Source of the DNA: a virus
Strand: one strand, 5' to 3'
Virus record (IMG/VR): IMGVR_UViG_3300022413_000008
Location: 4,315-68,314 of that record
Length of the DNA: 64,000 nt
Part shown: one piece after another, positions 1 to 17,260 of the stretch
Numbering within the stretch: position 1 is the first letter of the stretch
Layout of the letters: each line of letters starts with the position of its first letter
Notes under the pieces: model-generated
The model's input: only the letters and a program-made list of their open reading frames with translations
Database searches by the model: none
What the model was told of the DNA's origin: nothing
Program-made: the position numbers and the translations under genes

Positions 1-1
1 G

Positions 2-106
2 CCCGTGCTAGTTGAGGAACTGTGCGACGAATGCAATGATGAAGTGGTGGAAGATGATAGGCTATGTCCCGACTGCAAAGCATGGTTGCAGACCCGTAAG
101 CCGTGA
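2..106 (+). CDS. 3' end of a Cys-containing hypothetical protein (truncated by window edge)
   Basis: Frame 2 reads PVLVEELCDECNDEVVEDDRLCPDCKAWLQTRKP*, with two CxxC pairs. Confidence 0.6.
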   Translation, partial: PVLVEELCDECNDEVVEDDRLCPDCKAWLQTRKP

Positions 107-136
107 GTGCGGAAAGGTTAGCCCTATGCGGATCCT

Positions 137-445
137 AGCCTACTTCGATGGCAGTAGGCTTAACCGACAACCACGGCCGCCATCCAGAAAGGGAAACCAA
201 TTTACCCTAACAACCCGACCATGAGACTGACCCGAGTCTAACAAGCGCGGCGTGCTTACCGCTGAGTGGCGGCCTCAAGCGTGCCGTAGTCATGTCCGCC
301 CTTCAAAGCGAGCATGACAAGGGGCGAAAGCCTGACGCCCTGGGCGTCTGTCAAGGGCAGTGTCGGTTAAGTAGGGTCACCTACGAAACCGGCCGAATTT
401 CGGCTGAGAAAAGGGGCGGGCAGGCAACTGCCCGTCCTGCTTATT
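137..445 (+). ncRNA. Candidate structured non-coding RNA or DNA hairpin array
   Basis: Intergenic stretch with about 9 consecutive stem-loops, including GAAA and GCAA tetraloops; no family recognised. Confidence 0.4.
414..445 (+). terminator. Terminator-like hairpin
   Basis: gggcgggcag-gcaa-ctgcccgtcc followed by a weak T-rich tail (tgcttatt). Confidence 0.45.
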
Positions 446-449
446 GATT

Positions 450-581
450 ATGAGTTACGAAGGATGGATATTTCTAGTGGCGTGCTTATGCATATGCAGC
501 ATACTTGTGCGCAAAGCCAAGGCCCATGATGCTGCGGCGAAACGAAGCGGAACCAAACACAGGACAGGCAGGCTGACATGA
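450..581 (+). CDS. Small membrane protein (43 aa)
   Basis: MSYEGWIFLVACLCICSILVRK...; ATGA overlap with next ORF; below ORF-track cutoff. Confidence 0.55.
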   Translation: MSYEGWIFLVACLCICSILVRKAKAHDAAAKRSGTKHRTGRLT

Positions 582-859
582 TGATCCGCAAGATTGAAGA
601 CCTGTTCAGAGTGTTCGGTGTCGAAGGCATGGCCGTGCTAAAGAAAGAGATCTTCAAGACCACCGAATGTGGGGCGTGGATTCGTGAGGTCGACGGAGGA
701 GTGGTGATCGGGAGCATTGTCGAAGGGTCCGATGCAGAAGTCGGGCCGGTCACCTTGCCGTATCCGTTTCCTGTAGAGGACTTTTGGGAGAAATTGCAGG
801 ATGTAGACAACGAAGCATGCAGGCTATGGGAGGAAGTGAATGAGGATTGGGATGACTAA
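578..859 (+). CDS. Hypothetical early protein
   Basis: 93 aa ORF in coupled run. Confidence 0.75.
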   Translation: MMIRKIEDLFRVFGVEGMAVLKKEIFKTTECGAWIREVDGGVVIGSIVEGSDAEVGPVTLPYPFPVEDFWEKLQDVDNEACRLWEEVNEDWDD

Positions 860-965
860 CATACTGATTGCTATTCTGTGCCTGGTGGCAGCCCTACTGC
901 TATTGATGTCATTGGATGAGGCACCTAGAACCGAGCAGCAACAGATACTAATGGGAGGGCCATGA
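852..965 (+). CDS. Small membrane protein (37 aa)
   Basis: MTNILIAILCLVAALLLLMSLDE..., hydrophobic N-terminus, overlaps previous stop. Confidence 0.5.
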   Translation: MTNILIAILCLVAALLLLMSLDEAPRTEQQQILMGGP

Positions 966-1087
966 AGTGGAACCAAAACTAACGACAGCGCAACAGCGCA
1001 TGAAGCAATTTCTGGCGGAGTATGCGGCCTTCAAACGGGGCTTGAAGCCTACCTCACGTCAGAGCAGACCACCAAGGAAACAAAAGA

Positions 1088-1294
1088 ATGACACTGGACG
1101 ATGTAATACTGGTGCGAATTGACCGAGGGCGGGGCCGACGATTCTGTGCGGTACACGTTACCACGACCGGCCAAAAGGTTGGCGAGATAGCTGGCGTGCA
1201 AGCTACGGACGAGCAGATAGAGCTATTAATACAAGCGAAGGAGGAAGCGAATGACAGGGACGATGATGAGCGAGGTCTCTCTCCTAGGGACTAG
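1088..1294 (+). CDS. Hypothetical early protein
   Basis: 68 aa ORF. Confidence 0.55.
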   Translation: MTLDDVILVRIDRGRGRRFCAVHVTTTGQKVGEIAGVQATDEQIELLIQAKEEANDRDDDERGLSPRD

Positions 1295-1454
1295 CCTCCG
1301 GCTGGAGGAAGGGCAACAGGTGCGAATGGACATGCCCACAAACATTCCGGGTGCAGTGGCATCCGGTAAATGGTTTGTCTCCCCGATTGACGGTAGATGG
1401 GGGGACAGCAGCATACTGGTAGATAAACACGAAGTGAAGGCAAATGAAAACTGA
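1251..1454 (+). CDS. Hypothetical early protein
   Basis: 67 aa ORF preceded by ggaggaag. Confidence 0.55.
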   Translation: MTGTMMSEVSLLGTSLRLEEGQQVRMDMPTNIPGAVASGKWFVSPIDGRWGDSSILVDKHEVKANEN

Positions 1455-1623
1455 ACCACTCCTGGTTCCGGTCGACCTATTGCGGCAACTTCGCTACTAT
1501 CTGTATGCATACCGGAACCGGTGTTGGAATTGGTCGTTGGAAGGCAGGAAGGATGAGTATGCGCAACTCGAACAAACGATCAGCGATCTAGACAAACTCT
1601 TACACAGCTGCAATGAAAAATAA
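1444..1623 (+). CDS. Hypothetical early protein (59 aa)
   Basis: MKTEPLLVPVDLLRQLRYYLYAY...; fills the gap between neighbours; below ORF cutoff. Confidence 0.55.
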   Translation: MKTEPLLVPVDLLRQLRYYLYAYRNRCWNWSLEGRKDEYAQLEQTISDLDKLLHSCNEK

Positions 1624-1942
1624 ACCAATACCGGGTGCTGAGGTCTGGTGGTCGAGCGGCTCGGGACGCATAGAATTCAAGATGCCGGAACAGGCAGCGA
1701 TGGATTGTTATCATGTCGGTGCATGCGATGAGGATGTCGAGCATTGGTTGCCTGAGATGCGTGAGCGATTGGCTCATGTGTCTGACGAGGCAATGGTCTT
1801 GGAGCTGAGAGAATACGGGGCATGGGATGCCGAAGAGCTTGCCGACCGTGACGCTAACATTCGTCGGCTAACATGGCTGGCAGCTGGTGACTACCATGAG
1901 GAGGAGGAGCATGACTATGAAGAGCCGGGGAGTATCGAATGA
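1613..1942 (+). CDS. Hypothetical early protein
   Basis: 109 aa; CYHVGACDEDV and LREYGAWDAEEL segments resemble a common phage hypothetical family. Confidence 0.8.
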   Translation: MKNKPIPGAEVWWSSGSGRIEFKMPEQAAMDCYHVGACDEDVEHWLPEMRERLAHVSDEAMVLELREYGAWDAEELADRDANIRRLTWLAAGDYHEEEEHDYEEPGSIE

Positions 1943-2138
1943 TCCAGTATGGACGCTGTTCGAATGCGAGCGCGGCGCACGGTGGTCTTCGGTGTCTGAC
2001 AAGTTAGCTCCTGAGTGGTGCGAGTTCTCTGGCTGCGACAGCCGACGGCATATGGCAGTGATAGTGAAAACAACGACAGATAGAGACGAAGCAAGCAAGT
2101 GGTTCAGGAGACCGGAGGTAACCAATCATGATCACTAA
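1887..2138 (+). CDS. Hypothetical early protein (start uncertain)
   Basis: 83 aa ORF bridging neighbours. Confidence 0.5.
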   Translation: MTTMRRRSMTMKSRGVSNDPVWTLFECERGARWSSVSDKLAPEWCEFSGCDSRRHMAVIVKTTTDRDEASKWFRRPEVTNHDH

Positions 2139-2544
2139 AGAACAGAGAAAGGACATCCAGCGCCGACTCGCCAACCTTTACCGGTGGATTGCTCGGATGC
2201 GCCACCGAAACAGATCAGACTGGGCGAGCTGGAAAGCTGGATCAGAGCCCAGCTACTGCGTAGTGACGAACGAAGAGAGATCGTTAGCGGAAGTGTTTGA
2301 CTGGGTGCATGACCCTCCATCCGAATACTTCCTATACATTGACGTAGAGAAAGGGAAGGCTACGACGTGGATGGGTGACTCGTTAGGGGACGTGACGCTC
2401 GGCAAGCCATATCGAGTCCCGGCGTTCGGGCAGTCATCCGAGCGATGCGCGGTGTGGGTCACCGGGACAAATGGTTGCAAGTATTACGGCACCTACTACA
2501 GGAGCTCCGGCGACTACGCTCGGGTGAAGAGGTGCAAACAATGA
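2128..2544 (+). CDS. Hypothetical early protein
   Basis: 138 aa; TTWMGDSLG...GTNGCKYYG resembles a common phage hypothetical family. Confidence 0.8.
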   Translation: MITKEQRKDIQRRLANLYRWIARMRHRNRSDWASWKAGSEPSYCVVTNEERSLAEVFDWVHDPPSEYFLYIDVEKGKATTWMGDSLGDVTLGKPYRVPAFGQSSERCAVWVTGTNGCKYYGTYYRSSGDYARVKRCKQ

Positions 2545-2735
2545 GGAAAGGAAAGCACTTCCACACGATAACAATCCAAGCCAAGAACGGCACCTTCACC
2601 TTCGAGGGAAAGAAGATCCAGGCCAACCTATGGCAGACCCAAGGTAAGCAGTGGGTACACGTCCAACCCAATGGTGAAGCGGTCACCTACTTCAAGGAGC
2701 CAACACATTTATACTACGAAACGATAATTCTATGA
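2541..2735 (+). CDS. Hypothetical early protein
   Basis: ATGA overlap at 2541; MRKGKHFHTITIQ... Confidence 0.65.
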   Translation: MRKGKHFHTITIQAKNGTFTFEGKKIQANLWQTQGKQWVHVQPNGEAVTYFKEPTHLYYETIIL

Positions 2736-2926
2736 GAGTAGCAATCAGCTTTCTCGCGAATGACATGGGCGATGTTGAGCATGTGGTAGCCCAGCTTGCC
2801 CCCAAGATTGAGCACCAACTAGTCAGGCCTCAGGCATTGTGTAAACATGAGGAGGCAGAGGATCAACTAAGGGACCGCAACGGGAACGTGTGCGGCACAA
2901 TAAAAGTAACAAAGGACACAGAATGA
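2732..2926 (+). CDS. Hypothetical early protein
   Basis: 64 aa with ATGA overlaps on both sides. Confidence 0.65.
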   Translation: MRVAISFLANDMGDVEHVVAQLAPKIEHQLVRPQALCKHEEAEDQLRDRNGNVCGTIKVTKDTE

Positions 2927-3456
2927 GTACAGGAATAGACTACGGACGAGGAATAACAAACATCGACACATCAAATGGCATTCGCTTCGGAGTGGTGGCA
3001 TGCAACGCCCTGTCGCCATGGATATGGGATGATCTAGACCCAGTCTTCGGGCCTCCTGTCTGCAAGGATTGCCAGCATGAAATGGATTACGAGTCGCCGG
3101 ACGATTCAGGCAGGTTCTCGTGTCCAGAGTGTAGCACCCTAACAGATGAGGAGGATGCCTATCCTCATGAACCGGTAGGCTACGAGTATAAATCCGAGAC
3201 GTTGGTGATGCATACCGCATTCGACAACACTGAGCTCTTTGTGACGAAAAGCACACATGCCCGCTGCGTAAAGTTCTGTTCACCGTGTGCTCCCGGCGCG
3301 GGAGACATTGATTCACCGGACGAGAGCGGAGTCTGGGCATACTGCCCACCACCGGAGTGGTTTGGCGAATGCCCGCCGACAGACATTGTGACAACGGAAG
3401 AAGCACTCGAGATCATGAAGAATAACCCACAAGAACATGAACACGGCGTATTTTGA
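2923..3456 (+). CDS. Zn-ribbon-containing early protein
   Basis: MSTGIDYGRGITNID...; CKDC, CPEC and CSPC motifs. Confidence 0.8.
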   Translation: MSTGIDYGRGITNIDTSNGIRFGVVACNALSPWIWDDLDPVFGPPVCKDCQHEMDYESPDDSGRFSCPECSTLTDEEDAYPHEPVGYEYKSETLVMHTAFDNTELFVTKSTHARCVKFCSPCAPGAGDIDSPDESGVWAYCPPPEWFGECPPTDIVTTEEALEIMKNNPQEHEHGVF

Positions 3457-3814
3457 ACTCACTGTAAGGACGAAGGACATCGAGAAGTTCAGTGACTTCG
3501 ATGAGGCTGAAGGAGATGTCAATGTTAGCGTCCTGCGTTGGAAAAGCGGCACCACGGTAGCGCAACCGCACATCGAAGGGGTGCCCTATGTCGGCTATTG
3601 CGGCCCAACTGGCAACTCCCCTGCCGAGCGATGGGTTTACACCGGAGTGGGTTCCCAGGTCGAAGTAATGGAACTGGTCGATGATACCTATGCGATCATG
3701 GCGCCAGTTAATGACAAGGGTCGGGTCTACAGAGACCAAATCGAAGATCAGATCAGAGAGATTGAAAAGTTTGAAGCAACCAGAAGATCAGTGATAGAGG
3801 AGATTAACAAATGA
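3437..3814 (+). CDS. Hypothetical early protein
   Basis: 125 aa ORF, coupled. Confidence 0.7.
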   Translation: MNTAYFELTVRTKDIEKFSDFDEAEGDVNVSVLRWKSGTTVAQPHIEGVPYVGYCGPTGNSPAERWVYTGVGSQVEVMELVDDTYAIMAPVNDKGRVYRDQIEDQIREIEKFEATRRSVIEEINK

Positions 3815-4650
3815 TGAACCAGGAACGAATCGAATGGATACTGGAGCTCGCTCGCTCCGTCGCCGGAAGGGAAGCACTCAACAGGATTGAGGAGATACAG
3901 TTCGGAGAAGTAGGCGAGCGAGGCTATGATAACGAGACACTGACAGCGTTCGCAAATTGGAACAGTGTCAGGGCGTGGGTAAAAGACAAGGGCTACGTTG
4001 GTGAGGAAGACAAAACCATGGAGCGTCTGGCCGCCATCTTCGAGAAGGGAGGCCTCCAGATTGAGTGGTCGGACGAATGGTCTGCTTGCGGCGAGTGCTA
4101 CAAGTATTACCGCACGTCACCGGACGGTTACGATTGGCTACCATCGCTCGTGTGGGAGACTGATTGCGATCTGGTCTGTCCCGAGTGCCTTGACCACGAG
4201 ACGTATCTGGAGAGCATCGAAGGCGACCACAACAAGGCGGTTACCTCTGATGATATCGACCCATCAGAACACGGCTATCACAAGATAGACACCGACTTCG
4301 AGACCGGCTTCCATTCGCACCAAGACGATTCTCCGGAGAAGGTAGCCAAGGCACTCGAGAAGCAAGGGATCGGTCGGTATCTATTCCAGATCGACAGCAC
4401 TGGACAGTTCGATACGAGCTGGGCAGTGTGGATTCACGAAGAGGAGCTCGAGAAATTCAAGGGCCTTGGCAGTGAGGATACCAGATTCGACCTGGGTCAG
4501 TCGCCGGCCGAAGTAATGAAGCGGGGCCTTGAACAAGCAAGCCACGAACACAAGCCGGGCTGCGTCACGGTGAACAAGATCACTCAGACCGGGTGCGAAA
4601 CCAAGTTCGTTCCGCACCAGGACTTCATCGATGGAAAGGCTTTAGAATGA
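3811..4650 (+). CDS. Conserved phage early protein with Zn-binding motifs
   Basis: 279 aa; FANWN, EWSDEWSACGEC and VCPEC. Confidence 0.85.
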   Translation: MMNQERIEWILELARSVAGREALNRIEEIQFGEVGERGYDNETLTAFANWNSVRAWVKDKGYVGEEDKTMERLAAIFEKGGLQIEWSDEWSACGECYKYYRTSPDGYDWLPSLVWETDCDLVCPECLDHETYLESIEGDHNKAVTSDDIDPSEHGYHKIDTDFETGFHSHQDDSPEKVAKALEKQGIGRYLFQIDSTGQFDTSWAVWIHEEELEKFKGLGSEDTRFDLGQSPAEVMKRGLEQASHEHKPGCVTVNKITQTGCETKFVPHQDFIDGKALE

Positions 4651-4841
4651 ATTACTGTGACTTCAATCACGCAACCCCCAGAGAAGTAAGGCTGCTACCA
4701 ACCGGTGGCGGAGGCAACACCATAGTATGCCAGACCTGCTACTACAAGGAGATGCGCAGACGCAGGGAAGATACGAACGAGCGAGGGGTGGATAACGATA
4801 TCCCCACATGGGAATCGCTAAAGGTTTACGATCCATCATGA
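4647..4841 (+). CDS. Hypothetical early protein
   Basis: MNYCDFNH...VRLLPTGGGGNTIVCQTC; ATGA overlaps. Confidence 0.7.
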   Translation: MNYCDFNHATPREVRLLPTGGGGNTIVCQTCYYKEMRRRREDTNERGVDNDIPTWESLKVYDPS

Positions 4842-5038
4842 GACCACCACCAGAAGACATTGAATCAGCACTCCGAATCGAGACCGAAGCGCTCGGACGA
4901 GATTGGGAGAACTATATGGACTGGCTGAATAACAAGCCGATGAGTCACCGCTTCACTGACCGCGAGCTGCGTGACGGGTGTATTTTGGCCCACGAGTATA
5001 GGGGATGGAAGAACAGAAGCGATCACGATCCCGCATGA
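4838..5038 (+). CDS. Hypothetical early protein
   Basis: ATGA overlaps on both sides. Confidence 0.6.
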   Translation: MRPPPEDIESALRIETEALGRDWENYMDWLNNKPMSHRFTDRELRDGCILAHEYRGWKNRSDHDPA

Positions 5039-5268
5039 ACCTGTTAAAGCAAAACACCATCCTGTTACGCCGTGGCTCGGACAACACTGAGAAAAGGTTC
5101 TTCATGTCCAAGCCAACCTGGATGGCAGGGGCTATCATGTTTGCCAATGGCAGCGACCTATTCGTAGTTCAATTGGGGAGCAACGAACCGGAAAGAATCG
5201 CTGCCCGTCAACCGGAACTCATTCCAGAGTTTCGAATCAAATCCAGAACTAACCACGACAATAACTAA
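5035..5268 (+). CDS. Hypothetical early protein
   Basis: ATGA overlap at 5035. Confidence 0.55.
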   Translation: MNLLKQNTILLRRGSDNTEKRFFMSKPTWMAGAIMFANGSDLFVVQLGSNEPERIAARQPELIPEFRIKSRTNHDNN

Positions 5269-5273
5269 AGGTA

Positions 5274-5591
5274 ATGGAAATCAAAGTAGAACACATTCAC
5301 ATGATGCTGCAGGCTGCACGCCAGCACGTATGGAACACAATGGCTCGCCTCGACCAGGAGCTGGCGACGCACATGACGCTCGAGAGCACGCAGCCATGGG
5401 CTCCGTCTCCGGGCGCCGACATCACACCGAGAGCTGGTCGGATACGCACCCTTCAGGATGAACTAGACAGACAGAGATCCCTGCTGTCGTTTCTTACCGA
5501 CACGATCAGCAACTCGGGCAACCCTAACGATCGTATTCTCCTGTTCCAGAAATACTTGGCTGGAGACCGTTCGTTTCTCAGGCCGGGGTGA
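5274..5591 (+). CDS. Hypothetical early protein
   Basis: 105 aa ORF after aaagg. Confidence 0.7.
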   Translation: MEIKVEHIHMMLQAARQHVWNTMARLDQELATHMTLESTQPWAPSPGADITPRAGRIRTLQDELDRQRSLLSFLTDTISNSGNPNDRILLFQKYLAGDRSFLRPG

Positions 5592-5682
5592 TGAAGGCTT
5601 TATCCAGGGATGAGTCGTTGCGGCACAGGCCTGTGTCGCCTCTGAACTGGCGGTTACCGGACCGTATCCGGCAAGAATAAGT

Positions 5683-6855
5683 ATGAGTGATACACTAAGA
5701 CAACCCACACAAGGCGCACTGACGCCTGACAGCGCATCGGTAAGCACCTCGGAGGCGTACCGGCAATGGGCAAGCCGCCCGGAAGACGAGCGCTACAGCG
5801 ACCTCGAATCCCTGTTCGACGCATGCGCCTCACGGCGAACCCGATCACGTGAGGTTCACGTTGAAACGGACAAGCTTCAGGTCAAGCAGCATGAGGCGAC
5901 CGGCGAGCTGGTGATCAATGGCGAAACATCCGAATCGAAATGGACTCATTGGAGTTTTGGCCAGACTTGCAATCTGGTTGGGGCGCCAGCGAAATACCTG
6001 CGCGATCTTCCGGATGTCCTGATCAGAGCCAACCTGACCTACGGGCTGGCAACCCAACGGGAAACGATGAAGTTCATGACTGTCCAGCCTGATAATGACA
6101 CCGAGCAGCTCAGCACGCTGCAGGCTGTCACGTCGACTACTTACGGACGGATATGGGACGCTGACTGTGTCAAGGCATGCCAGCACATCGTGGAGCGATC
6201 CAATGGGCGGTTCCACAACCCACTGGCTTATGCGGCGGGCGACTACATGGGGCACAAAGGCACGGAGCCAAGGCCGTCAGGTCTCTACGCCTCCGATCGT
6301 GATGTGTTCATGTTCATGATCGACGGCGGCTCACTGTTGGAAGCTGGGCCTCGGGCCAAACTCAACCGGGGGTTCTTCATGTGGAACAGCGAGGTTGGCT
6401 CGCGATCGTTCGGATTGATGACGTTCCTATTCAACCAGGTCTGTGGGAACCATCTGATCTGGGGTGCGCAGGACGTAAACAAGATCATCATCCGCCACTC
6501 GTCCGGTGGGCCATACCGGTTCGAGACCGAAGGGACGCCAGCGCTGAAGCAGTTCGTGGAGGCGCCGGCTGCCCCGATTGAGGAAGTCCTCCGCAAAGCA
6601 CAAGACTACATGCTGCCTGTCCGGATGGACGGAGACGAGGAGAAGAGCATGCGTGAGTTTGTTGCGAAACGCGCCAAGTTCTCCGCCGCTGAGGTAAGGG
6701 ATGCCATGAAGTTTGCGAGAGCCGAGGAAGGCGAATGTCGCACCTTGTGGCAGCTCGTGCAGGGTTTCACTGCGTCGGCACGTGCGATCCCACACATGGA
6801 CACTCGGATCGACCTCGAGAAGCGAGCGGGCAAGCTCATGTCGTTCGCTGAATAG
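5683..6855 (+). CDS. DUF932 / phage-plasmid LGT-family protein
   Basis: RQWASRPEDERY, THWSFGQ, TYGRIWDAD, GLYASDRDVFMF, WNSEVGSRS and QVCGNHLIWG motifs. Confidence 0.85.
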   Translation: MSDTLRQPTQGALTPDSASVSTSEAYRQWASRPEDERYSDLESLFDACASRRTRSREVHVETDKLQVKQHEATGELVINGETSESKWTHWSFGQTCNLVGAPAKYLRDLPDVLIRANLTYGLATQRETMKFMTVQPDNDTEQLSTLQAVTSTTYGRIWDADCVKACQHIVERSNGRFHNPLAYAAGDYMGHKGTEPRPSGLYASDRDVFMFMIDGGSLLEAGPRAKLNRGFFMWNSEVGSRSFGLMTFLFNQVCGNHLIWGAQDVNKIIIRHSSGGPYRFETEGTPALKQFVEAPAAPIEEVLRKAQDYMLPVRMDGDEEKSMREFVAKRAKFSAAEVRDAMKFARAEEGECRTLWQLVQGFTASARAIPHMDTRIDLEKRAGKLMSFAE

Positions 6856-7002
6856 TCACTGACAACCAACTAACGACCATTGGGGAAACCAATTGGACAA
6901 CAATCGAAAGAGAAAGGCAAGCTCATGTAATTCGATGAATAGGCAGCGACAACCAACTAACGACCATGGGGGAGACCAATTGAACAACAATCGAAAGAGA
7001 AA
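6849..7002 (+). repeat. Imperfect direct repeat, about 67 bp x2, period 87 bp
   Basis: tgaatag...gacaaccaactaacgaccat.gggga.accaattg.acaacaatcgaaagagaaa at 6849-6915 and 6936-7002. Confidence 0.9.
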
Positions 7003-7005
7003 AAC

Positions 7006-7380
7006 ATGGATAATGCAGAGCTAATACTTAAACTTCTGAAGCTATTACCGAACGAAGACAACGAACAGAATCCTCAGAGCGATTCTGAGTGTGAAATGAA
7101 CCCCATCACTGGCACGGTGCTGAGATCCGTCGTTTACCCGGGTGCGAAAGTGCTGATCAGGACAGTGACCAGCTACTTCGCGGGAGTGGTGAGTGAGGTG
7201 GACGACCACTTCATCGCATTGGCACACGCTTCGTGGGTTGCTGACACGGGACGTTTCTCGGACGCGCTAAAGAGCGGGTCATTCACCGAGGTGGAGATGT
7301 ATGATCGGGCCGTGATCGTCGCCGTGGCCGCCGTGGTTGACGTGACGACCCTTCCGGAGGTTCCTGCGAAGCAGAAGTAG
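7006..7380 (+). CDS. Sm/LSm-like fold phage protein (DUF6948-like)
   Basis: KVLIRTVTSYFAGVVSEVDDHFIALAHASWVADTGRF resembles Sm1; VIVAVAAVVDV resembles Sm2. Confidence 0.7.
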   Translation: MDNAELILKLLKLLPNEDNEQNPQSDSECEMNPITGTVLRSVVYPGAKVLIRTVTSYFAGVVSEVDDHFIALAHASWVADTGRFSDALKSGSFTEVEMYDRAVIVAVAAVVDVTTLPEVPAKQK

Positions 7381-7400
7381 GACGCACGATAAAGGCAGGA

Positions 7401-7424
7401 GCAGGCCCATGCACTTGGGCCTGC
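7401..7424 (+). other. Perfect 9-bp hairpin between the Sm-like gene and the repeat array
   Basis: gcaggccca-tgcact-tgggcctgc; no U-tract. Confidence 0.8.
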
Positions 7425-7470
7425 CCTATACCGCAGCAAGGTCACTGTCACATTCATGGAGGTTTGCACT

Positions 7471-7764
7471 ATGACGTATCTAGCGAGTCGGGCATGTTCA
7501 AATGCACGGGCAGAATCAAGGTCACTGACACAGGAACTTGCGCTGTCACGGTCACGGTCACGGACAGGATCGTGGTCACTGGCATGGTCTTTCTCATGGT
7601 CACTGGAAAGGGCATGGGCACGGGCATGGTCACAGTCAAGGGCAGGGTCACAGGCAGGGTCGGAGGCAGGGGCGCTGTCACGGTCAACGACAGTGTCGTG
7701 GTCACATTCACGAACATGTTCAATGTCACTGTCATGGGCACGGCCAAGGAGGTTTCTAATATGA
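7471..7764 (+). CDS. Ser/Arg/Trp-rich mini-protein, unit 1
   Basis: MTYLASR...; ggagg upstream; stop overlaps next ATG. Confidence 0.55.
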   Translation: MTYLASRACSNARAESRSLTQELALSRSRSRTGSWSLAWSFSWSLERAWARAWSQSRAGSQAGSEAGALSRSTTVSWSHSRTCSMSLSWARPRRFLI

Positions 7765-7997
7765 CGTATCTAGCGAGTCCGTCATGGCCATCATCACGAT
7801 CGCGATCATCGCACCGGTCACGTTCAGTGGCCGGGTCAGGGCCATCATCACGATCGCGATCATCGTACCGGTCACGGTCAGGGGCATGGGCACGGTCATG
7901 GTCCCGGTCAATGACAAGGATACGGTCAGGGGTAGGTTCATGGGTAAGGTCAGGGTCACGGGCAACGTCATGTCCCGATAAGAAAGGCACGATATGA
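7761..7997 (+). CDS. Ser/Arg/Trp-rich mini-protein, unit 2
   Basis: MTYLASPSWPSSRSRSS...; aggagg upstream; ATGA overlaps. Confidence 0.55.
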   Translation: MTYLASPSWPSSRSRSSHRSRSVAGSGPSSRSRSSYRSRSGAWARSWSRSMTRIRSGVGSWVRSGSRATSCPDKKGTI

Positions 7998-8200
7998 CAT
8001 ATCTAGCGAGTCCGGATGAGCCCTGTTCGAAGGCATCAGCAAGGTCATGGACAGGGTCACGGTCAGGGGCAGGGACACGGTCATGGGCAAGGACACGGTC
8101 ATGGGCAAGGGCATGGTCATGGGCAGTGGCAGGGCCACGGGCATGGTCAAGGTCAGGGTCACGGGCAACGTCATGTCCCGATAAGAAAGGCACGGCATGA
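7994..8200 (+). CDS. Ser/Arg/Trp-rich mini-protein, unit 3
   Basis: [19 protein letters not shown]...; ATGA overlaps. Confidence 0.55.
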
Positions 8201-8394
8201 CGTATCTAATGAGTCGGGGTGCGCCCTGTTCGAGGGCATCAGCACGGATGAAGCATGGCACCCGGTCGTGGGCAAAGTCACGGACAGGTACACTGTCGCT
8301 ATCACTCACATTCGCATGGTCGTGGGCATGGTCAATCACACGGGGGTGCGCATTCAATCGGTCACGATCACTAGGTAAAAAAGGTTTGTTATGA
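8197..8394 (+). CDS. Ser/Arg/Trp-rich mini-protein, unit 4
   Basis: [17 protein letters not shown]...; ATGA overlaps. Confidence 0.55.
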
Positions 8395-8633
8395 CGTATC
8401 TATCGAGTCCGGGTGAGACCCGTTCGAAGGCAGCATCAAGGTCATGGACAGGGCCACGGTCATGGACAGGGCCACGGTCATGGGCAAGGTCGGCATGGTC
8501 AAGGTCATGGTCACGGTCACGATCAGGATCCTTGGCATGGTCACGGTCATGGTCATGTTGCCGGTCAAGGTCATGTTGCCGGTCACGGGCATGGTCACTG
8601 GCAGGGGTATGGTCGTGGTCACAGGCAAAATGA
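8391..8633 (+). CDS. Ser/Arg/Trp-rich mini-protein, unit 5
   Basis: [19 protein letters not shown]... Confidence 0.55.
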
Positions 8634-8643
8634 TTCAATGGCC

Positions 8644-8850
8644 ATGAGCGCACGAGGGGTCGAGGTTCTCTGTCAGATCTCGGCCCCTCACTTTGTCGCG
8701 GGGATTGTGGCTTGCAATGGCCGGGTTACTCATGCCGCACCGATCGTGCGTTACATGATTGGCTGGACTGGCAAGCAACTTCGGGATTACTGTAGGAAGA
8801 AATCATGGACAATCACCGTAATCACGAAGACCCAAGAAATCCGCAGTTAG
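8644..8850 (+). CDS. Conserved small phage protein
   Basis: [12 protein letters not shown]...[12 protein letters not shown]...RDYCRKKSW resembles a common phage hypothetical family; start could be 8638. Confidence 0.75.
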
Positions 8851-8933
8851 AACCACTCCTCCGGTTTGCTGAGAAGAAGATCCTACGCCACCGGTGCATC
8901 GCCTGCCAGGAAAAAACAGGTAAAGAGGAGACC

Positions 8934-9203
8934 ATGCCGATCAAGAAGACTCAAGACCCACTCGCCCCGGACACCACGGCTGATGTGACTTGGGGCCTGT
9001 GTCCTAACTGCCAGGCCATCATCGATGAGAAAGGCACCATTATTTTCTGTGATGGGCAGCGGTCCAGATGCGCCACGTTTAAGCAAGAATTAGCCGGCCG
9101 GCTCTTCAAGCCCGAGGCCCTAGGCCAGTGTCTGAAAGTAACATCTGCTGAGTTTGACGTGCTTGAAGAGACGTGCCGGAAAATGGCACAAGAAAAAGGT
9201 TGA
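8934..9203 (+). CDS. Hypothetical protein with CxxC
   Basis: gaggag RBS before ATG 8934; WGLCPNCQ. Confidence 0.7.
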   Translation: MPIKKTQDPLAPDTTADVTWGLCPNCQAIIDEKGTIIFCDGQRSRCATFKQELAGRLFKPEALGQCLKVTSAEFDVLEETCRKMAQEKG

Positions 9204-9229
9204 CAGTTCGAAACCCCTGGCGCTATTGT
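9200..9229 (+). promoter_or_regulatory. Sigma70-like promoter, probably leaderless
   Basis: TTGACA (9200) -18 bp- TATTGT -6 nt- ATG (9236), no SD. Confidence 0.5.
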
Positions 9230-9235
9230 GCCGGT

Positions 9236-10186
9236 ATGTCTGAACACAACGATCTTGAACTCATCTCCTCGGCCGAGTCCGTCAATGCTATCGAACGGGC
9301 GCAAATTGACACGCAGGTAGCGACGGCCAAGAAATACCCTCGTTCCCTATCAGAGGCTAAAAAACGCATGCTGGACGTGGTTCAGCTAGACCAGGAGACG
9401 GCAGCTGCCTGCTTCTACACCCTTCCAACCCGACGAGGCGGGGACAAGCCTATCCAGGGGCCGAGCATCCGCCTCGCAGAGGTAGCGATAGCCGCGTATC
9501 AGAACCTGTCGGCGGGCGCACGAATCGTCGCCGATGACGGCAACTTTGTCACGGCCCAGGGAATTTGCTTCGACATGGAGAATAACACTCGGATCACAAT
9601 GGAGGTCAAGAGACGGGTAGTGGACAAGAACGGCAGAAGGTATTCAGAGGACGTAGTCGGAACCACGATGAACGCCGCTTGTGCCATCGCTCTTCGGAAT
9701 GCTGTGCTCAAGGTTATCCCTGGCGCTTTGGTTAAGCCTGTCTACGAGAAGGCATTAGAGTTTGCTGTAGGGGATCAGAAGACACTGGCGATGCGGCGGG
9801 CAAAAGCGGTGAAGCATTTCGTGCAGATGGGGGTAGAGGAACCTCGAATCTTTGCGGCAATTGGTGTCCGGGGCCTAGAGGAAATAGGGATCGAAGAGCT
9901 TACGGTTCTCATGGGGTTGCACACTGCGATTACTGATGGGGCGTCAACTCTTGACGAAGCTTTCCCGGAACTTAGCACACCCAAGAAGTCAGGGCTCACT
10001 GATCCGCCACCACCACAGCCTGCGCCGCCGCGCAAGCGCAAAACCAAGGCAAAAGCCACCGAGGCACCACCACCCGAACCTGAACCCGAACCCGAACCCG
10101 AACCCGAACCCGAACCCGAACCCGAACCAGAACCAGAAGAACTGGCAGGGACTCCTCCGGACGACGATGAACCACAACTATTTTGA
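9236..10186 (+). CDS. Probable ssDNA-annealing/recombination protein with (PE)11 linker and acidic tail
   Basis: QVATAKKYPRS and GPSIRLAE motifs; adjacent to a PD-(D/E)XK nuclease; ends DDDEPQLF. Confidence 0.65.
   Translation: MSEHNDLELISSAESVNAIERAQIDTQVATAKKYPRSLSEAKKRMLDVVQLDQETAAACFYTLPTRRGGDKPIQGPSIRLAEVAIAAYQNLSAGARIVADDGNFVTAQGICFDMENNTRITMEVKRRVVDKNGRRYSEDVVGTTMNAACAIALRNAVLKVIPGALVKPVYEKALEFAVGDQKTLAMRRAKAVKHFVQMGVEEPRIFAAIGVRGLEEIGIEELTVLMGLHTAITDGASTLDEAFPELSTPKKSGLTDPPPPQPAPPRKRKTKAKATEAPPPEPEPEPEPEPEPEPEPEPEPEELAGTPPDDDEPQLF
10073..10138 (+). repeat. Hexamer repeat (CCNGAA)11 encoding (Pro-Glu)11
   Basis: Directly visible tandem repeat. Confidence 0.95.
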
Positions 10187-10398
10187 TTATGACAACAGAT
10201 GAAGTGAACAACGCGTTCTCGTATCACCCTCCGAAGGGTGATCAGGCAGAGAGGTATTCGAAGATCCGAGATGCAGGACATGGACTTGCATTCGTAATTC
10301 AGAAGCGTTGCCCTGAATCGAGAGAGAGATCATTGGCTCTAACCAAGCTGCGCGAAGCCATCATGTGGGCCAACGCTTCGATTGCGTGCAATGAATAA
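10183..10398 (+). CDS. Acb2/Tad1-like helical-hairpin protein (putative signal sponge)
   Basis: FSYHPP...RY..IR...CPESRERSLALTKLREAIMWANASIA motif. Confidence 0.65.
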   Translation: MIMTTDEVNNAFSYHPPKGDQAERYSKIRDAGHGLAFVIQKRCPESRERSLALTKLREAIMWANASIACNE

Positions 10399-10564
10399 CC
10401 GACGAGCCAAGTGGATCAATCGTCTCGCCGCCAGGCTGTGGATCATGAAACCTGACGAAGGCTCAGCTAAGACCATTGGCCGAAGAATCAAAAAGGCCTA
10501 CCAACAGGTGCCGCGCAACGAACGATTCAAATGGATGTGTGAACTAGAGGACCAAATGAGATGA
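10391..10564 (+). CDS. Small basic hypothetical protein
   Basis: Coupled between neighbours. Confidence 0.6.
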   Translation: MNNRRAKWINRLAARLWIMKPDEGSAKTIGRRIKKAYQQVPRNERFKWMCELEDQMR

Positions 10565-11700
10565 GTGACGAACGAGAAGGATTGCCTAGCGCAAGCGAGC
10601 TCGGCGCAATCGTAGCCTGTCCCGGGTATCAAAACGCGAAGGCTAAATTCCCGACCTCCCCCGAGCGGTACGCGCTGTTTGCCGCAGCTGGTGAGCAAAT
10701 GCACGAGGCTCTCCAGATGTCCGTTGACGGGGAGGATCAGGAGTGGGAAAACCTCTCGGCGCGAGAAGAGTGGGTTGTCAGCGAGTGCATTAAGATTAGG
10801 CGTGCCCTATGTGAGGAACTTCTCGGCAACAAAGATCCATCAAAGTCTTTCACCGAGCAGAGATTCTGGCTGACATCGGCCGGCCGACGGTTATTCTCCA
10901 GTCGCCTGGATTACGCTGCGTTGCGTGCTGATGGGCGCCACCTGCTGGTTGTCGACTACAAGACAGGGCCGGGCCATTACCCCGAAGCGACAATGAATTG
11001 GCAGATTCATGGCGGAATCGCAGCCTTCTGCTCCCAGGAAAACGCATCCCTCAATGGTCTTCAGCGGGTCTATGGAGCAATCATCCAGCCTCTAGTCACA
11101 CGGAAACCTGTCGTTCTGGAACTAGATCCTGGCGAGATAGCTCCCCTGCAGACGCAGATCAGCCATGCAATTGCCGCGAGCAACCTCAAGAGTCCTCCCA
11201 GGATACCTGGAATGCACTGCATCTATTGTCCTGCTAGAGGAGCCTGCCCTGAGGCACAATCCGCCGCACCTCTGACCATCGAGACTAGATGGAAGGAGGG
11301 ATTGCCACATCTGACGCCTGCTGCGATCACCAAGTTGTTGCCTTTTATCCCAGTGATCCAGAGCCGACTCGATGCACTGCGGGAGTTGGCCAAAGAAATT
11401 CTGGCGAAAGATCCTGATGGGTTGCCAGGTTACACCCTGAAGGAAGTAGGCGCCGGCCGTAAGATCACCGACGTTAACAAGTTTGCCGCAGTGGTGGCTG
11501 ATTACGTGACACGCGATGAACTCCGTCCGCTGATGACCATTCCCAATGCTAAGGTGCGAGAGCTGTGGGTCTCCCGGGCAGCCAAAGACCAATCGATCAC
11601 GAAGAAGGAAGCTACCGACCGTTGGGAACTGCTAATCGAAGAAGTGTCAGAACCTAACCCGACACAGAAGCGATTGTTCAAGAAAGGTAAAAGCAAATGA
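10561..11700 (+). CDS. Cas4-like PD-(D/E)XK exonuclease (DUF2800-like)
   Basis: PSAS...ACPG, G..MH, EQRF, RLD, VVDYKTG, Q and PG.HC.YCPARGAC motifs. Confidence 0.85.
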   Translation: MSDEREGLPSASELGAIVACPGYQNAKAKFPTSPERYALFAAAGEQMHEALQMSVDGEDQEWENLSAREEWVVSECIKIRRALCEELLGNKDPSKSFTEQRFWLTSAGRRLFSSRLDYAALRADGRHLLVVDYKTGPGHYPEATMNWQIHGGIAAFCSQENASLNGLQRVYGAIIQPLVTRKPVVLELDPGEIAPLQTQISHAIAASNLKSPPRIPGMHCIYCPARGACPEAQSAAPLTIETRWKEGLPHLTPAAITKLLPFIPVIQSRLDALRELAKEILAKDPDGLPGYTLKEVGAGRKITDVNKFAAVVADYVTRDELRPLMTIPNAKVRELWVSRAAKDQSITKKEATDRWELLIEEVSEPNPTQKRLFKKGKSK

Positions 11701-12188
11701 GCAAAAGAAAACAAGATAATCAGACCGAAGAGGCAGTCATCTCCGAACACGAGCAGCTCGCCCGTGATATCGCAAGGTCGTTGCTCGCTGGCATGGCGAA
11801 TACTTCCTTAGAACAGCGAGAGGCACAAGTCATTGCATGGGCGGCAGTCAATACGATTGACCTATTGAAACACCACTGGTTGAAGGATGTGCGGCAAGGC
11901 CTTATCGGCAATGACGCCAAGCTGACCCTCAACTGCTCCCACGTGGTGGACTTCAACACGGAACTGGGCGCCCTCGAGAGCAAAATCACCGGGAGCTTAG
12001 GTAAATGGAAGGACACGACAGGGCTGATTCCGCTCGCTGACCTAGACCAACTGGAGCTAGGATTCATGGAATCTAAGGAAAAAACGGTCGAGGTGCCTCC
12101 GGAAATACCCTGCGAGGACAACGCTGAGGACAACGACGAGGAGGAACATGGGACTGACGAGGACGATGGCGCGACGGATCTTACGTAA
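11697..12188 (+). CDS. Hypothetical protein with acidic tail and QLELGF motif
   Basis: 163 aa, coupled. Confidence 0.75.
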   Translation: MSKRKQDNQTEEAVISEHEQLARDIARSLLAGMANTSLEQREAQVIAWAAVNTIDLLKHHWLKDVRQGLIGNDAKLTLNCSHVVDFNTELGALESKITGSLGKWKDTTGLIPLADLDQLELGFMESKEKTVEVPPEIPCEDNAEDNDEEEHGTDEDDGATDLT

Positions 12189-12316
12189 GACACTTGACTG
12201 TTACTTAGCCGCAAAGCTCAAGGCTGCGGAGGAAAGAGAGCGAGCCAAGTGTGATCCACTGATTAGCGATGAAACCGTCAGTCAGATAGTTGAAGCAGCA
12301 AAGGAGCTGAAGCTTA

Positions 12317-12781
12317 ATGAGGATGACCCAGGCAGAAGTGGACGCATTCCTCAAGAGGAGGGGGGTAGCCAACGCATCAGTGTCCAAACTACCCCTCCCG
12401 GTAGCGGCCGCAAAGGCTGACACTCCTCCCCCCGACTGGAAAGCTACGGCTCCCAGAACGGAGGTAGCATACGATGGGATCCTTCAATCCCATGGCTACG
12501 ATGTCATTCTGCATGAACCGATGCGCTTCATCCTGGGACGGAAGTGTAGCTACACTCCTGACTTCCTGACGATTGCAGATGGGTGTATTTGGTTCCATGA
12601 AGTAAAAGGGGGATTCACCTATGACGACGCGAAAGTTAAATTCAAGGTCGCCGCAAAGATGTACCCGTTCTTTGGATGGGTACTGGCCGTGCAATCGAAG
12701 AAGGTCTGGACACGGCTGGATCTCCGAACAAACCGCCCGATAGACATAAACCAAATACTAAATACTTATGGACTGGAATGA
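12317..12781 (+). CDS. PD-(D/E)XK endonuclease (DUF1064 / resolvase-like)
   Basis: TE..Y, YTPDF, HEVKG and DAKVKFK motifs. Confidence 0.85.
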   Translation: MRMTQAEVDAFLKRRGVANASVSKLPLPVAAAKADTPPPDWKATAPRTEVAYDGILQSHGYDVILHEPMRFILGRKCSYTPDFLTIADGCIWFHEVKGGFTYDDAKVKFKVAAKMYPFFGWVLAVQSKKVWTRLDLRTNRPIDINQILNTYGLE

Positions 12782-13148
12782 ATACCTAAAGGCATCGCAG
12801 CGAACCTCCGCCGAGGACAGCCTGCAACACGCCGTGCTCGGGATAGGCACCGAAGCCGGAGAACTGCTTGATGCCTACAAGAAGAATCGATTCTACGCGG
12901 CACCGCTCGATCGAGTGAATCTCAAAGAAGAAATCGGAGACCTCATGTGGTATGTGGCTATGCTCTGTCGGAACAAAGGATTCGATCTTCATGAGTGCCT
13001 CGATCTCAATATAGCCAAACTCAAGAGGCGATATCCAAATGCGTTCGACGAAGTGAAGGCAGTTTATCGAAACCTGCCTGCCGAACGGAACGCGCTCGAG
13101 ACACCGCTGGACGCAAGCGCAAGAATCCAAACAGGAGACGATTTATGA
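12768..13148 (+). CDS. mazG: MazG-like nucleotide pyrophosphohydrolase
   Basis: LGIGTEAGELLD...KEEIGDLMWYVA...NIAKLKRRY. Confidence 0.9.
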   Translation: MDWNEYLKASQRTSAEDSLQHAVLGIGTEAGELLDAYKKNRFYAAPLDRVNLKEEIGDLMWYVAMLCRNKGFDLHECLDLNIAKLKRRYPNAFDEVKAVYRNLPAERNALETPLDASARIQTGDDL

Positions 13149-13558
13149 GCGATGACCTAAGACAAGGACAATTCTCCGGAGTGCTCGTACGTAACTCGGA
13201 GTATTCGAACGATCGAGGCTTCGACATGCTGAAGTTCACGATCGCCGTCGAGAAATATGTGAGACCCGGGCAGGCCGAAGACAATAGCATGTATGTCCAA
13301 TGCACGCTGTTTGGCAAGCGTGCCTCGGCACTCGAGGATCACTTGAGGAAGGGCACCACCATCAACGTCGCCGGGGAGATCTGGCTCCGACAATGGGTGA
13401 CCAAGCAGGGCAAGCCAGGAGCTGGACTTCAAATGACTGTGAGTCAGTTTTCTTTCCAGCGAGCGTCGGCCGGCAAGTCAACAGAGAAAGCCGTTGCTCC
13501 GCAACGATCGAAACCGAAACCCGAAACCGACGATGAAGACGATGATGTCCCGTTCTGA
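13145..13558 (+). CDS. ssb: Single-stranded DNA-binding protein
   Basis: OB-fold pattern (KFTIAV, CTLFGKRA, L.KG..I.VAGE) and C-terminal DDDVPF tip. Confidence 0.9.
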   Translation: MSDDLRQGQFSGVLVRNSEYSNDRGFDMLKFTIAVEKYVRPGQAEDNSMYVQCTLFGKRASALEDHLRKGTTINVAGEIWLRQWVTKQGKPGAGLQMTVSQFSFQRASAGKSTEKAVAPQRSKPKPETDDEDDDVPF

Positions 13559-13823
13559 TATACTCATTGAACTGCAAATCCTCCGGGGCTTCTCACCGAC
13601 AGCGGCCAGGGTGATGGTGAAACGGGCGGCTGTAGTTGAAGGTGCGACAACCGAGTGGCTCAATGGTCGGCCGGATTGCTCGGCTCAGTGGACGGAAATG
13701 ATCGAGACTCTAAAGAATGAAGGCGAATTACCAAAGCAAGTAGTAGGTGCCATCATCATGCGCTTTCTCGAAGATGAAATGAATCAGTATGACAAAGGCA
13801 TCCAAAAACCGCAGCTTAACTAA
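13542..13823 (+). CDS. Hypothetical protein
   Basis: Coupled ORF between ssb and the initiator-like gene. Confidence 0.6.
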   Translation: MMSRSDILIELQILRGFSPTAARVMVKRAAVVEGATTEWLNGRPDCSAQWTEMIETLKNEGELPKQVVGAIIMRFLEDEMNQYDKGIQKPQLN

Positions 13824-14289
13824 ACAGGTTGAAGACTACCTCGACGGGAACGTCAAGCCCGATGCGCCGTTCATTGTGGAGCTCCTGAATGGATCGCTCC
13901 TCGCTCCTGGCATTGATAAACAAGGTGAGTACACTGATGCCACAACCGCGATCCTGAAAGTCCTCCTGGAAAGGCTTGGCAAAAAGCGACCGACAAAGGT
14001 TGACCCTCGAGCGGTCGAAGCAATCTATAACCTCTATCCACGAAAGGTCGGCAAGAAGGCTGCGCTCAAGGCCATAACAAAAGCTGTCCTCGACAAGGCG
14101 CTGCCATTCGATGCGACCGACCTAGGTTCCAGAATCGAATTCCTCGTCAACCGCACTAGAGAATACGCTGAAGAACGCCTGAACGAGGACCCAAATTTCA
14201 CGCCACACCCAGCAACCTGGTTTAATCAGGGGCGCTACCTCGATGAACCGATATTACCAGAGAGAGAGGCAACCGGATGGACGACGTGA
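13789..14289 (+). CDS. Replication initiator / replisome-organiser-like protein (C-terminal domain type)
   Basis: YNLYPRKVGKKAA and FTPHPATWFNQGRYLDE motifs; upstream of a DnaC-like ATPase. Confidence 0.75.
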   Translation: MTKASKNRSLTKQVEDYLDGNVKPDAPFIVELLNGSLLAPGIDKQGEYTDATTAILKVLLERLGKKRPTKVDPRAVEAIYNLYPRKVGKKAALKAITKAVLDKALPFDATDLGSRIEFLVNRTREYAEERLNEDPNFTPHPATWFNQGRYLDEPILPEREATGWTT

Positions 14290-17130: not shown

Positions 17131-17260
17131 GTTCGTTTCTGACTTGGCGGCTCGCGAGTTTGCTAACGCACTACTGCTATCAGCCAAAAAGGAATGCCTA
17201 GGTTTGAACGCAAAGCCGGGACCGTTTACTTCGCCCATTCAGGAGATGCTGGAGATCTGA
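16952..17260 (+). CDS. Small basic protein, possible AP2/arm-type DNA-binding domain
   Basis: KYLFRWRVRIQGKIYRRQKTRRF...AREFAN; overlaps both neighbours. Confidence 0.45.
   Translation: MNQNEIPIPPPRKLREKSVSPRGRKFSLRVRIAEVDGGKYLFRWRVRIQGKIYRRQKTRRFVSDLAAREFANALLLSAKKECLGLNAKPGPFTSPIQEMLEI

Follow-up and report, generated by a model that had tools for sequence, protein, structure and literature searches.

An early-region gap of an uncultured phage holds an enlarged copy of a phage and mobile-element RNA family

Introduction

Why would a phage with densely packed early genes leave 343 nucleotides (nt) between two of them uncoded? The question is raised by a 64-kb stretch of DNA, here called the window, which comprises bases 4315–68314 of the 73,174-nt uncultured phage record IMGVR_UViG_3300022413_000008 (estimated to be 95% complete). 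The first kilobases of the window are packed with small open reading frames (ORFs) on the + strand, among which positions 107–449 form a gap. An earlier note, written from the letters alone, had described a hairpin-dense, non-coding stretch starting at 137 and had offered two explanations: an unclassified non-coding RNA, or a promoter or origin element folded in single-stranded DNA (ssDNA). The gap is indeed non-coding, as an ORF of ~70 amino acids (aa) ends with a UGA stop codon at 104–106 and the next gene starts at 450.

To our knowledge, few phage structured RNAs have been characterised so far. The nut, put, pRNA and tRNA-like elements and the RNA anti-CRISPRs each revealed new handling of host transcription, packaging or defence. 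Here, we confirm that the hairpin-dense gap is real and probably encodes a structured RNA of the + strand, with an exceptional, strand-specific fold that is the best in the window. The element is an enlarged copy of an RNA family of phages and mobile elements that is absent from Rfam 15 and from the literature searched. On balance, it probably acts as an RNA domain that is co-transcribed with the upstream gene, binds a putative partner, and ends at or tunes a terminator.

The gap folds into a strand-specific RNA

Folded as + strand RNA, positions 107–450 reach −147.1 kcal/mol at a z score of −5.78, and 0/100 shuffled sequences fold as well; the − strand attains a z score of −2.14. After correction for G+C content by regression, none of the 740 windows of 344 nt tested across both strands of the 64 kb folds better than the gap (57.6% G+C in this region). 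The helices checked in the minimum-free-energy (MFE) structure contain one or two G·U pairs each, which explains the strand asymmetry and favours RNA over DNA. Thus, both the argument from G·U pairs made in the earlier note and the comparison with shuffles that it had named as a check hold up. Among the sub-domains, each of which is significant on its own, 361–445 has the lowest z score (−5.61), followed by 175–274 (−4.07), 280–360 (−2.68) and 94–177 (−2.34).

The MFE structure comprises a long-range helix, a closed four-way domain (domain I, 175–274), hairpins 289–318 and 330–358 enclosed by the long-range helix, and then hairpins 371–384, 390–406 and 413–438. The 3′ strand of the long-range helix lies at 359–371; 159–169 and 361–371 form 11 perfect base pairs, and the portion formed in the MFE structure (161–169/361–369) has a mean pair probability of 0.95. 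Domain I is closed by 175–183/266–274 (0.99) together with 185–187/262–264 and encloses the hairpins 190–208, 224–239 and 243–257. Hairpin 289–318 is formed by 289–295/312–318 with inner pairs 297–299/308–310 (0.94–1.0), and hairpin 330–358 by 334–339/343–348 around a 3-nt loop, extended by 330–333/355–358 at a lower probability of 0.3–0.4. Two hairpins occupy 371–406, namely 371–375/380–384 with a GUCA loop and 390–396/400–406 with an AUU loop. The last, terminator-like hairpin (413–445 with its tail) has 11 pairs, eight of them G-C, and a GCAA loop, followed by GCUUAUUGAU.

Every back-to-back stem listed in the earlier note is present in the sequence and in the table of helix pair probabilities, including 137–144/153–160, 224–228/235–239, 413–423/428–438, and 371–375/380–384 inside the local alternative pairing 364–368/387–391. 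A 10-bp stem (248–257/277–286, with two G·U pairs) enclosing CCGC-UGAGUG-GCGG exists as well, but at a z score of −1.1 it is not beyond chance, and it competes with the better helix 175–183/266–274. Short ORFs overlap the gap, for example 292–447 (51 aa), and could be taken for the remains of a decayed gene; however, they have neither a ribosome-binding site nor a protein-level match in the sister phage described below. Given also the best fold of 740 windows and the recurrence of a motif in unrelated contigs, a decayed gene or a chance fold is hardly credible.

In agreement with the failure of the earlier note to match known RNA classes, Rfam 15 (4227 models) returns nothing at the gathering threshold in the 64-kb window, and for positions 1–700 searched up to E 10 it gives only unrelated chance matches outside the element. 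ARAGORN finds no tRNA or tmRNA gene in the window. Neither the gap nor 20 kb of sequence has a match among 50,697 phage records (blastn/megablast), and database comparisons leave this phage without a cultured relative.

A two-part motif recurs in unrelated mobile elements

The 5′ end of the element carries a two-part motif (94–177) consisting of CCGUAAG-CCGUG-A-GU-GCGG, a variable insert, and AACCACGG. A single-stranded tail, CCGUAAG (94–100), leads into the 5′ strand of helix P1 (GCCGUG-A-GU, 100–108, with A106 bulged), which is followed by the junction GCGG (109–112). The insert holds the enlarged P2 (116–165), closed in the MFE structure of 94–177 by GGUUA (116–120) and UAACC (161–165) and enclosing the hairpin 137–144/153–160; all members have P2 as a hairpin of variable make-up, the insert measuring 3 to 92 nt. 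The 3′ motif AACCACGG(C) (169–177) provides the 3′ strand of P1, in which 100–108 pairs with 170–177. The codons of the upstream ORF run into the element, its stop codon sitting inside the conserved motif within the 5′ strand of P1. The element does not start at 137, as previously placed, but at ~74–94, within the end of this ORF, which itself has no relatives among viral contigs.

When IMG/VR was scanned with the 19-mer CCGTAANCCGTGAGTGCGG, a pattern from which the 3′ motif is absent, six contigs were returned, and 6/6 carry AACCAC(T)GG 34–92 nt downstream; by our own estimate, ~0.0015 such occurrences per sequence are expected by chance. These contigs are otherwise unrelated, and the motif also lies at the syntenic site of the sister phage. 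A second scan with CCGTGAGTGCGG-N30-60-AACCACGG, in which the tail is not required, returned the same true members, all bearing the CCGTAAG tail. Three extra matches to this pattern, tail-less and in G+C-rich coding DNA, were judged to be chance. Metagenome and genome scans add variants in L087 and L094, where AACCGCGG makes a U·G pair in P1, in L084 (AACCCCGG), and in L080 (AACCACAG). Most other 19-mer matches in metagenomes and genomes are coding and lack the 3′ motif. Across 185,579 prokaryote species, represented by one genome each, there are 10 matches to the exact 19-mer or its complement, most of them coding.

In unconstrained folds of most members, GCCGUG-A-GU pairs with AC-CACGGC around the variable insert. 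There is one motif copy per genome, every member examined lies in sense orientation relative to its neighbouring genes, and the context genes of the other members share no common function. L087 and L094 adjoin a tRNA gene and an integrase ORF (identified by eye); as the L087 copy does so, the motif is present in integrative elements as well as in phages. In L087 (oriented, 1971–3700), the motif directly follows the tRNA gene and the ORF, by eye that of a tyrosine integrase, and precedes a very strong hairpin.

Compact members share a covarying fold

The last viral scan, in which transitions were allowed in five positions of the P1 5′ strand only, yielded 46 loci and added 36 viral contigs that carry the motif. 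CCAUG is found in 38, and 28 of these 38 carry AACCAUGG, so that CCAUG pairs with CAUGG, a G-C to A-U exchange. Two exchanges are combined in L122 (CUAUG with CAUAG), L119 has a U·G pair, and nine loci have a U·U mismatch. Elsewhere in the family, helix P1 thus shows compensatory changes from G-C to A-U and from C-G to U-A. Over ~140 nt, the compact unit runs from a P0 hairpin and an A through the CCGUAAG tail, P1, GCGG, P2, AAAC, the 3′ strand of P1, and AG to P3. In P3, GCGUGA pairs with UCACGC, GA is bulged, and an inner helix, P3a, is enclosed; 4–6 nt further on stands an intrinsic terminator that has a U-run.

Covariation was assessed in 31 aligned compact sequences on our own structure of 35 pairs. 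In this structure, 95.9% of the cells are paired, and 15 pairs (61 cells) are changed on both sides; 0/500 shuffles reach these values, and slid controls are 34–51% paired. RNAalifold predicts 26 pairs, 15 of which show compensatory changes. P1, P2, P3, and P3a covary, and the junction nucleotides are invariant. Around 40 positions are invariant in the compact members, in part forced by the search pattern; this includes the tail, invariant in all 31 aligned members at a position fixed by the search patterns.

Further members or descriptions were sought in several ways. The compact unit is not found in cultured phages (blastn/megablast against 50,697 phage records). A first covariance model, R1, detects no further member in 696 kb of loci, and a second, R2, detects none in Sinorhizobium phage phiM5, nor in two phages from spring water with a TerL 50–57% identical to that of the compact members. 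Rfam gives nothing up to E 5 for the L070/L071 element and nothing at the gathering score for L068, L069, L072, L073, and L002. Literature searches for the motif strings return primers and unrelated matches only. We entertain, tentatively, the possibility that the conserved core is a new functional RNA class common to unrelated phages and integrative elements. Such a core could control how the transcription unit ends, either as a regulatory domain to which a ligand or a polymerase binds or as a small ribozyme, and the 350-nt version in the window would then be an elaborated form with extra peripheral domains.

In compact members, the upstream ORF has its stop codon right at the border of the unit, so that a promoter would not fit between them. 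The unit is followed by a homing endonuclease gene of varying type (HNH or EndoVII-like) or, directly, by a convergent gene that adjoins TerL and faces the unit with its 3′ end; in many members, nothing co-directional follows. This arrangement bears on an alternative in which the RNA is stable and trans-acting, being released by cleavage from the upstream transcript, or by termination at its end, as a small RNA (sRNA) derived from a 3′ untranslated region (3′-UTR) or as a decoy. It might, for example, sequester a host or phage protein or pair with a target via the CCGUAAG tail. A compact element is the last in its transcription unit, abuts the upstream stop, brings its own intrinsic terminator, combines ~40 invariant positions with a single copy per genome, and has nothing, or an optional endonuclease gene, behind it. 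As nothing is left there to regulate, this alternative gains ground among compact members. Bacterial sRNAs derived from 3′-UTRs, such as CpxQ and SroC, resemble the element in being co-transcribed with an upstream ORF, in sharing its terminator, and in having a conserved single-stranded stretch near the 5′ end; the CCGUAAG element, however, is far more structured and has many more invariant positions. Moreover, the near absence of the exact 19-mer and its complement from the 185,579 prokaryote species genomes makes a long conserved antisense target unlikely, and in this phage the element lies within an operon, with the next gene starting only 11 nt further on. We therefore regard a trans-acting RNA, whether it sequesters a protein or pairs with a target, as the main rival but as doubtful, and prefer the co-transcribed domain acting at a terminator.

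Across L114–L154, endonuclease genes (three HNH types and one EndoVII-like) are present or absent right after the RNA terminator, a polymorphism that suggests that the RNA locus is a conserved landing site.

The window copy is a family member with probably enlarged domains

Model R2 was built from compact members only, with this phage left out. It matches window 94–177 with 23.5 bits (E 0.0028) over model positions 23–83, i.e. tail, P1, and P2. Full-length matches are obtained for L084 (35.2 bits, E 7.5e-6) and L087 (29.8 bits, E 0.00011) and a core match for L069 (20.7 bits, E 0.012), while the sister phage locus L066 (16.9 bits, E 0.077), L071 (15.6 bits, E 0.15), and L073 (12.9 bits, E 0.59) score weakly. 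In the match to the window, the 3′ motif and its pairing are independent of the search pattern. Window 94–177 is established as a member of the family: the general 5′ motif, CCGUAAG-YYRYR-AGUGCGG, is found at 94–112, and AAC plus the P1 complement follows downstream of the insert at 169–177 (AACCACGGC). The covarying homologs that had been proposed as a check on the structured RNA are thus found for 94–177, but not for 178–445.

For the rest of the gap, we infer an expanded member in which P2 and P3 are enlarged and four hairpins are added. Domain I occupies the position of P3 in compact members, shares G175–C177 with P1, and would be the equivalent of P3. A P3 of the compact type (GCGUGA/UCACGC with GA bulge and P3a) is not found in the window, where R2 stops at model position 83 and domain I differs in sequence and branching. 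Between the P3 position and the terminator-like hairpin lie the four extra hairpins, which puts hairpin 413–438 at a distance of 138 nt from domain I; 11 nt separate its end from the next start codon. With its tail GCUUAUUGAU, which has five U in the 8-base scan window but a weak U-tract, the hairpin passes a simple terminator scan, and it is the only terminator-like site on the + strand in window 1–20000; an exact scan for its sequence gives no other match.

A P0-like hairpin (UGCAA/UUGCA, 5 bp, 7-nt loop) lies at 74–90 on the + strand, where compact members have a 7-nt-loop hairpin just before the tail. In this phage, the evidence for it is weak, as it falls within the last codons of the upstream ORF and is not aligned by R2.

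The sister phage retains the edges of the gap

The sister phage IMGVR_UViG_3300022226_000004 (76,991 nt) is collinear with this phage, with 65–72% nucleotide identity in conserved genes and 81% protein identity in TerL. The early region is a mosaic between the two, because the 93-aa gene that follows the mini-protein gene downstream of the gap sits elsewhere in the sister phage. Nevertheless, the synteny of the gap is fixed by the orthologue of the mini-protein (L066:13042–13167; 40% identity, E 7e-8), upstream of which the sister gap extends over 247 nt (L066:12796–13042, z −3.1). Both mini-protein genes start with an AUG that lacks a Shine-Dalgarno sequence and lies 8–11 nt after a strong hairpin; in the sister phage this is a different G+C-rich hairpin, ending 8 nt before the orthologous start codon.

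Common to both gaps are 22 nt at the 5′ edge, across the stop codon of dissimilar ~70-aa ORFs. In both, AACCAC(U)GG follows 57 nt further on, and directly after it a closed multi-branch domain (z −3.51 in the sister phage) starts on the last G residues of the motif. In both phages, the 3′ strand of this domain carries a second UGAGUG at ~+160, flanked by CCGC/GCGG here and by UGCG/CGCA in the sister phage. The two gaps are not alignable by blastn or nhmmer, i.e. their interior is not conserved, and the same programs find nothing beyond chance when the gap is compared with 54 related viral loci and whole records.

A passive hairpin array that terminates or insulates transcription or protects mRNA ends, with the motif as a mere processing or protein-binding site and no folded domain, would accord with this lack of interior conservation, with the several stems that have alternative pairings, and with the recurrence of terminator-like hairpins after the motif. 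However, P1, P2, P3, and P3a covary around invariant junctions, a pattern typical of a specific fold, and the perfect 11-bp long-range helix and the closed multi-branch domain exceed hairpins in a row. Such an array is therefore unlikely, and we retain a folded domain that is co-transcribed and acts at a terminator.

The sister phage also contains a tail-less second core copy in tandem at L066:12938–12969 (CGUGAGUGCG, then 14 nt, then AAACCACGG), and in L073 a similar GGGCAACAACCACGGAC precedes the downstream start codon by 9 nt. The orthologous mini-proteins are 41–43 aa long, both end in RLT, and each gene is ATGA-coupled to the next. In three lineages (window 104–106; L066:12793–12795; L073, oriented, ~1183), unrelated ORFs of ~70 codons end exactly on the UGA of P1 with the C-terminus ...R(K/N)P, and a ribosome terminating there would cover the tail and P1. 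This coincidence may reflect simple compaction or a form of translational coupling.

Genomic context points to co-transcription by the host polymerase

On the + strand, the phage carries genes for an exonuclease, a protein resembling Holliday-junction resolvases, an SSB, an O-like replication initiator, a DnaC-like loader, and a tyrosine integrase, whereas its structural genes are found on the − strand. The replication and recombination genes are lambdoid-like, and the replication module lies ~13 kb from the element, with initiator and loader at 13.8–15.3 kb. No phage RNA polymerase was recognised among the window proteins, so transcription probably falls to the host RNA polymerase, as it does in lambdoid phages. 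Comparisons with PHROG, Pfam, and PDB sequences give no match for a 2955-aa virion protein, although remote homologues could be missed in this way. No promoter was found for the element; one block that looks like a promoter and is conserved in the sister phage, the only one of its kind, is situated ~4 kb upstream, at record position 361. Since the stop codon lies inside the motif and no promoter was found, the element is most likely transcribed together with the upstream gene. Of the unclassified non-coding RNA proposed earlier, the structured + strand RNA is borne out, but it is probably not a free-standing gene.

Downstream, the mini-protein gene (450–581, + strand) encodes a 43-aa membrane protein and is coupled via an ATGA overlap to the 93-aa ORF 578–859, whose identical product is also encoded by a second contig (74,743 nt).

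The same context bears on a function at the DNA level, in which the gap would be an origin of replication, a site of recombination or nicking, or a single-stranded hairpin promoter of the N4 type that is used after ejection. The motif does hold direct and inverted copies of CCGTRRK, and some members lie near integrases or a Y1-type transposase-like ORF (by eye). N4 early promoters have stems of 6–7 bp with 3-nt loops, and three such stems occur here (243–257, 334–348, 390–406). Against this stand the strand asymmetry of the fold with its G·U pairs, which the family helices keep and to which L087 adds the U·G variant of P1, as well as the constant sense orientation and the variable spacing of the motif halves (3 to 92 nt). 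The terminators that close compact members are U-tailed and lie on the gene strand. The region is G+C-rich and shows no iterons, no AT-rich region, and no origin-type direct repeats, and the initiator and loader genes are far away. With a virion protein that shows no polymerase signature in the above comparisons, an N4-like phage with a virion RNA polymerase is not supported either. The ssDNA promoter or origin of the earlier note is thus not supported, and a DNA-level element of any kind is very unlikely.

A possible role at the end of the transcription unit

For the co-transcribed domain that we favour, the following course can be envisaged. Host RNA polymerase would continue the transcript of the upstream early gene through the element (74/94–445), and the RNA would form a compact domain that binds a candidate partner, be it a protein, RNA polymerase, or a small ligand. 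It would then end at, or modulate, the terminator hairpin 413–438, and may thereby set the level of read-through into the downstream early genes. Two helix competitions are predicted: P1 competes with the closing helix of domain I for G175–C177, as in the sister phage, and the UAACC of P2 (161–165) competes with the long-range helix. By our reading of the sequences, a downstream hairpin also competes in L069, L071, and L073, where it contains or overlaps the 3′ motif. These competitions may resemble a switch, which we treat as a lead only because MFE predictions of the long forms are unstable.

Several known systems resemble the element in part. The put RNAs of phage HK022 are cis-acting antiterminator transcripts of an early operon that are made by host RNA polymerase, follow the promoter or the first small gene, precede terminators, and function as nascent folded RNA with no dedicated protein (PMC9378689). 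They are ~70 nt long, form two stem-loops in a V shape, bind the zinc-binding domain of the polymerase β′ subunit, and suppress termination (PMC9378689). Judged by this description of put only, the element would likewise be a folded RNA of an early operon, in a phage with lambdoid-type replication genes; in contrast to put, compact members often have nothing downstream to antiterminate. With lambda nut, the element shares a short linear conserved stretch followed by a hairpin, after a small early ORF and before a terminator. Unlike in the lambda system, no N-like protein was identified (the small basic ORF 967–1122 shows no detectable similarity to its sister counterpart), and the CCGUAAG motif also occurs in non-lambdoid contexts. 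Neither a boxA nor a boxB consensus is recognisable in the element.

Terminator-type riboswitches are similar in their invariant junctions, their covarying helices of variable length, and a terminator a few nt after the last helix. The CCGUAAG family may add a pseudoknot between the tail CCG and the junction CGG, and P1 competes with a downstream helix here, in the sister phage, and, by reading, in L069, L071, and L073. Unlike riboswitches, however, the element matches no Rfam model, its downstream genes are unrelated or absent, and the compact terminator does not overlap the core. HEARO or IscB omega-RNA and phi29 pRNA are also RNAs of 120–300 nt in mobile elements, and an HNH or terminase gene adjoins compact members. 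Yet no Rfam model matches even at E 5–10, and HNH is optional and varied, like a secondary insertion; for pRNA, there are no phi29-like genes.

Several points weigh against the proposed role and against the assignment of the whole gap to the family. Homology is demonstrable only for the 5′ quarter (94–177), and positions 178–445 have one distant syntenic counterpart and no covariation. The R2 match to the window is modest, and 14 of its matched bases are not independent, because the compact members were fished with a pattern from this phage. P1 is invariant in long-insert members and hence unproven there, and in the full-length MFE structure of this phage it is not formed, as domain I and the long-range helix win. 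The U-tract after hairpin 413–438 is weak. Finally, the many compact members with nothing co-directional downstream argue against a general leader role in controlling downstream genes.

The family is new and testable, with covarying helices, units capped by terminators, and a ~60-nt core in which ~27 bases hardly vary. Members are found near integrases and in viral contigs that have no other similarity, among them this uncultured phage of 73 kb. Should the core bind a metabolite, a termination factor, or RNA polymerase, it would represent a new regulatory principle for mobile elements and could become a compact tool for termination control. If it is only a processing or stability site, annotating it would still be useful, as it accounts for a large gap in these genomes.

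Further observations on the early region

A 27-nt similarity between window 316–342 and record 1233–1259 is probably chance, as the copy lies in a coding region. A halophilic or archaeal host, suggested by weak TerL matches to haloviruses, was rejected on account of a median protein pI of 6.3.

Downstream of the RNA, at the same place in both phages, lie small Lys/Arg-rich ORFs of 45–51 aa (window 967–1122; L066:13286–13423), which have no detectable similarity to each other. Such an ORF is a possible candidate for an RNA-binding partner, as is an Sm-like protein of this phage encoded at 7006–7380.

The early region is headed by a second large non-coding leader of ~750 nt (L002:338–1089, record coordinates), whose sister counterpart is L026:770–1260. 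The latter was considered as the counterpart of the gap and rejected, being a different leader near the early promoter. The leader opens with a block common to both phages, ATGTGTGA-NN-GGGACCCATTATA, followed by a C-rich run. L002:940–1310, which extends ~220 nt beyond the 3′ end of the leader into the next gene, folds with a z score of −6.0 and contains a ~30-bp hairpin at 1018–1085.

In both phages, a 22-nt C-rich motif, CCTAACNNNCAAACCTAGCGAC, is repeated in short intergenic spacers of the early region, ~25 nt before start codons. Copies lie upstream of the window at L002:1596–1617, 1836–1857, and 2610–2631 (record coordinates) and in the sister record at 49365 and 49613. A degenerate copy (17/22) in the multiloop of domain I (206–227, + strand) is not conserved in the sister phage counterpart. 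The motif could serve as a site of regulation or processing, or as a sequence of the Rho-loading type.

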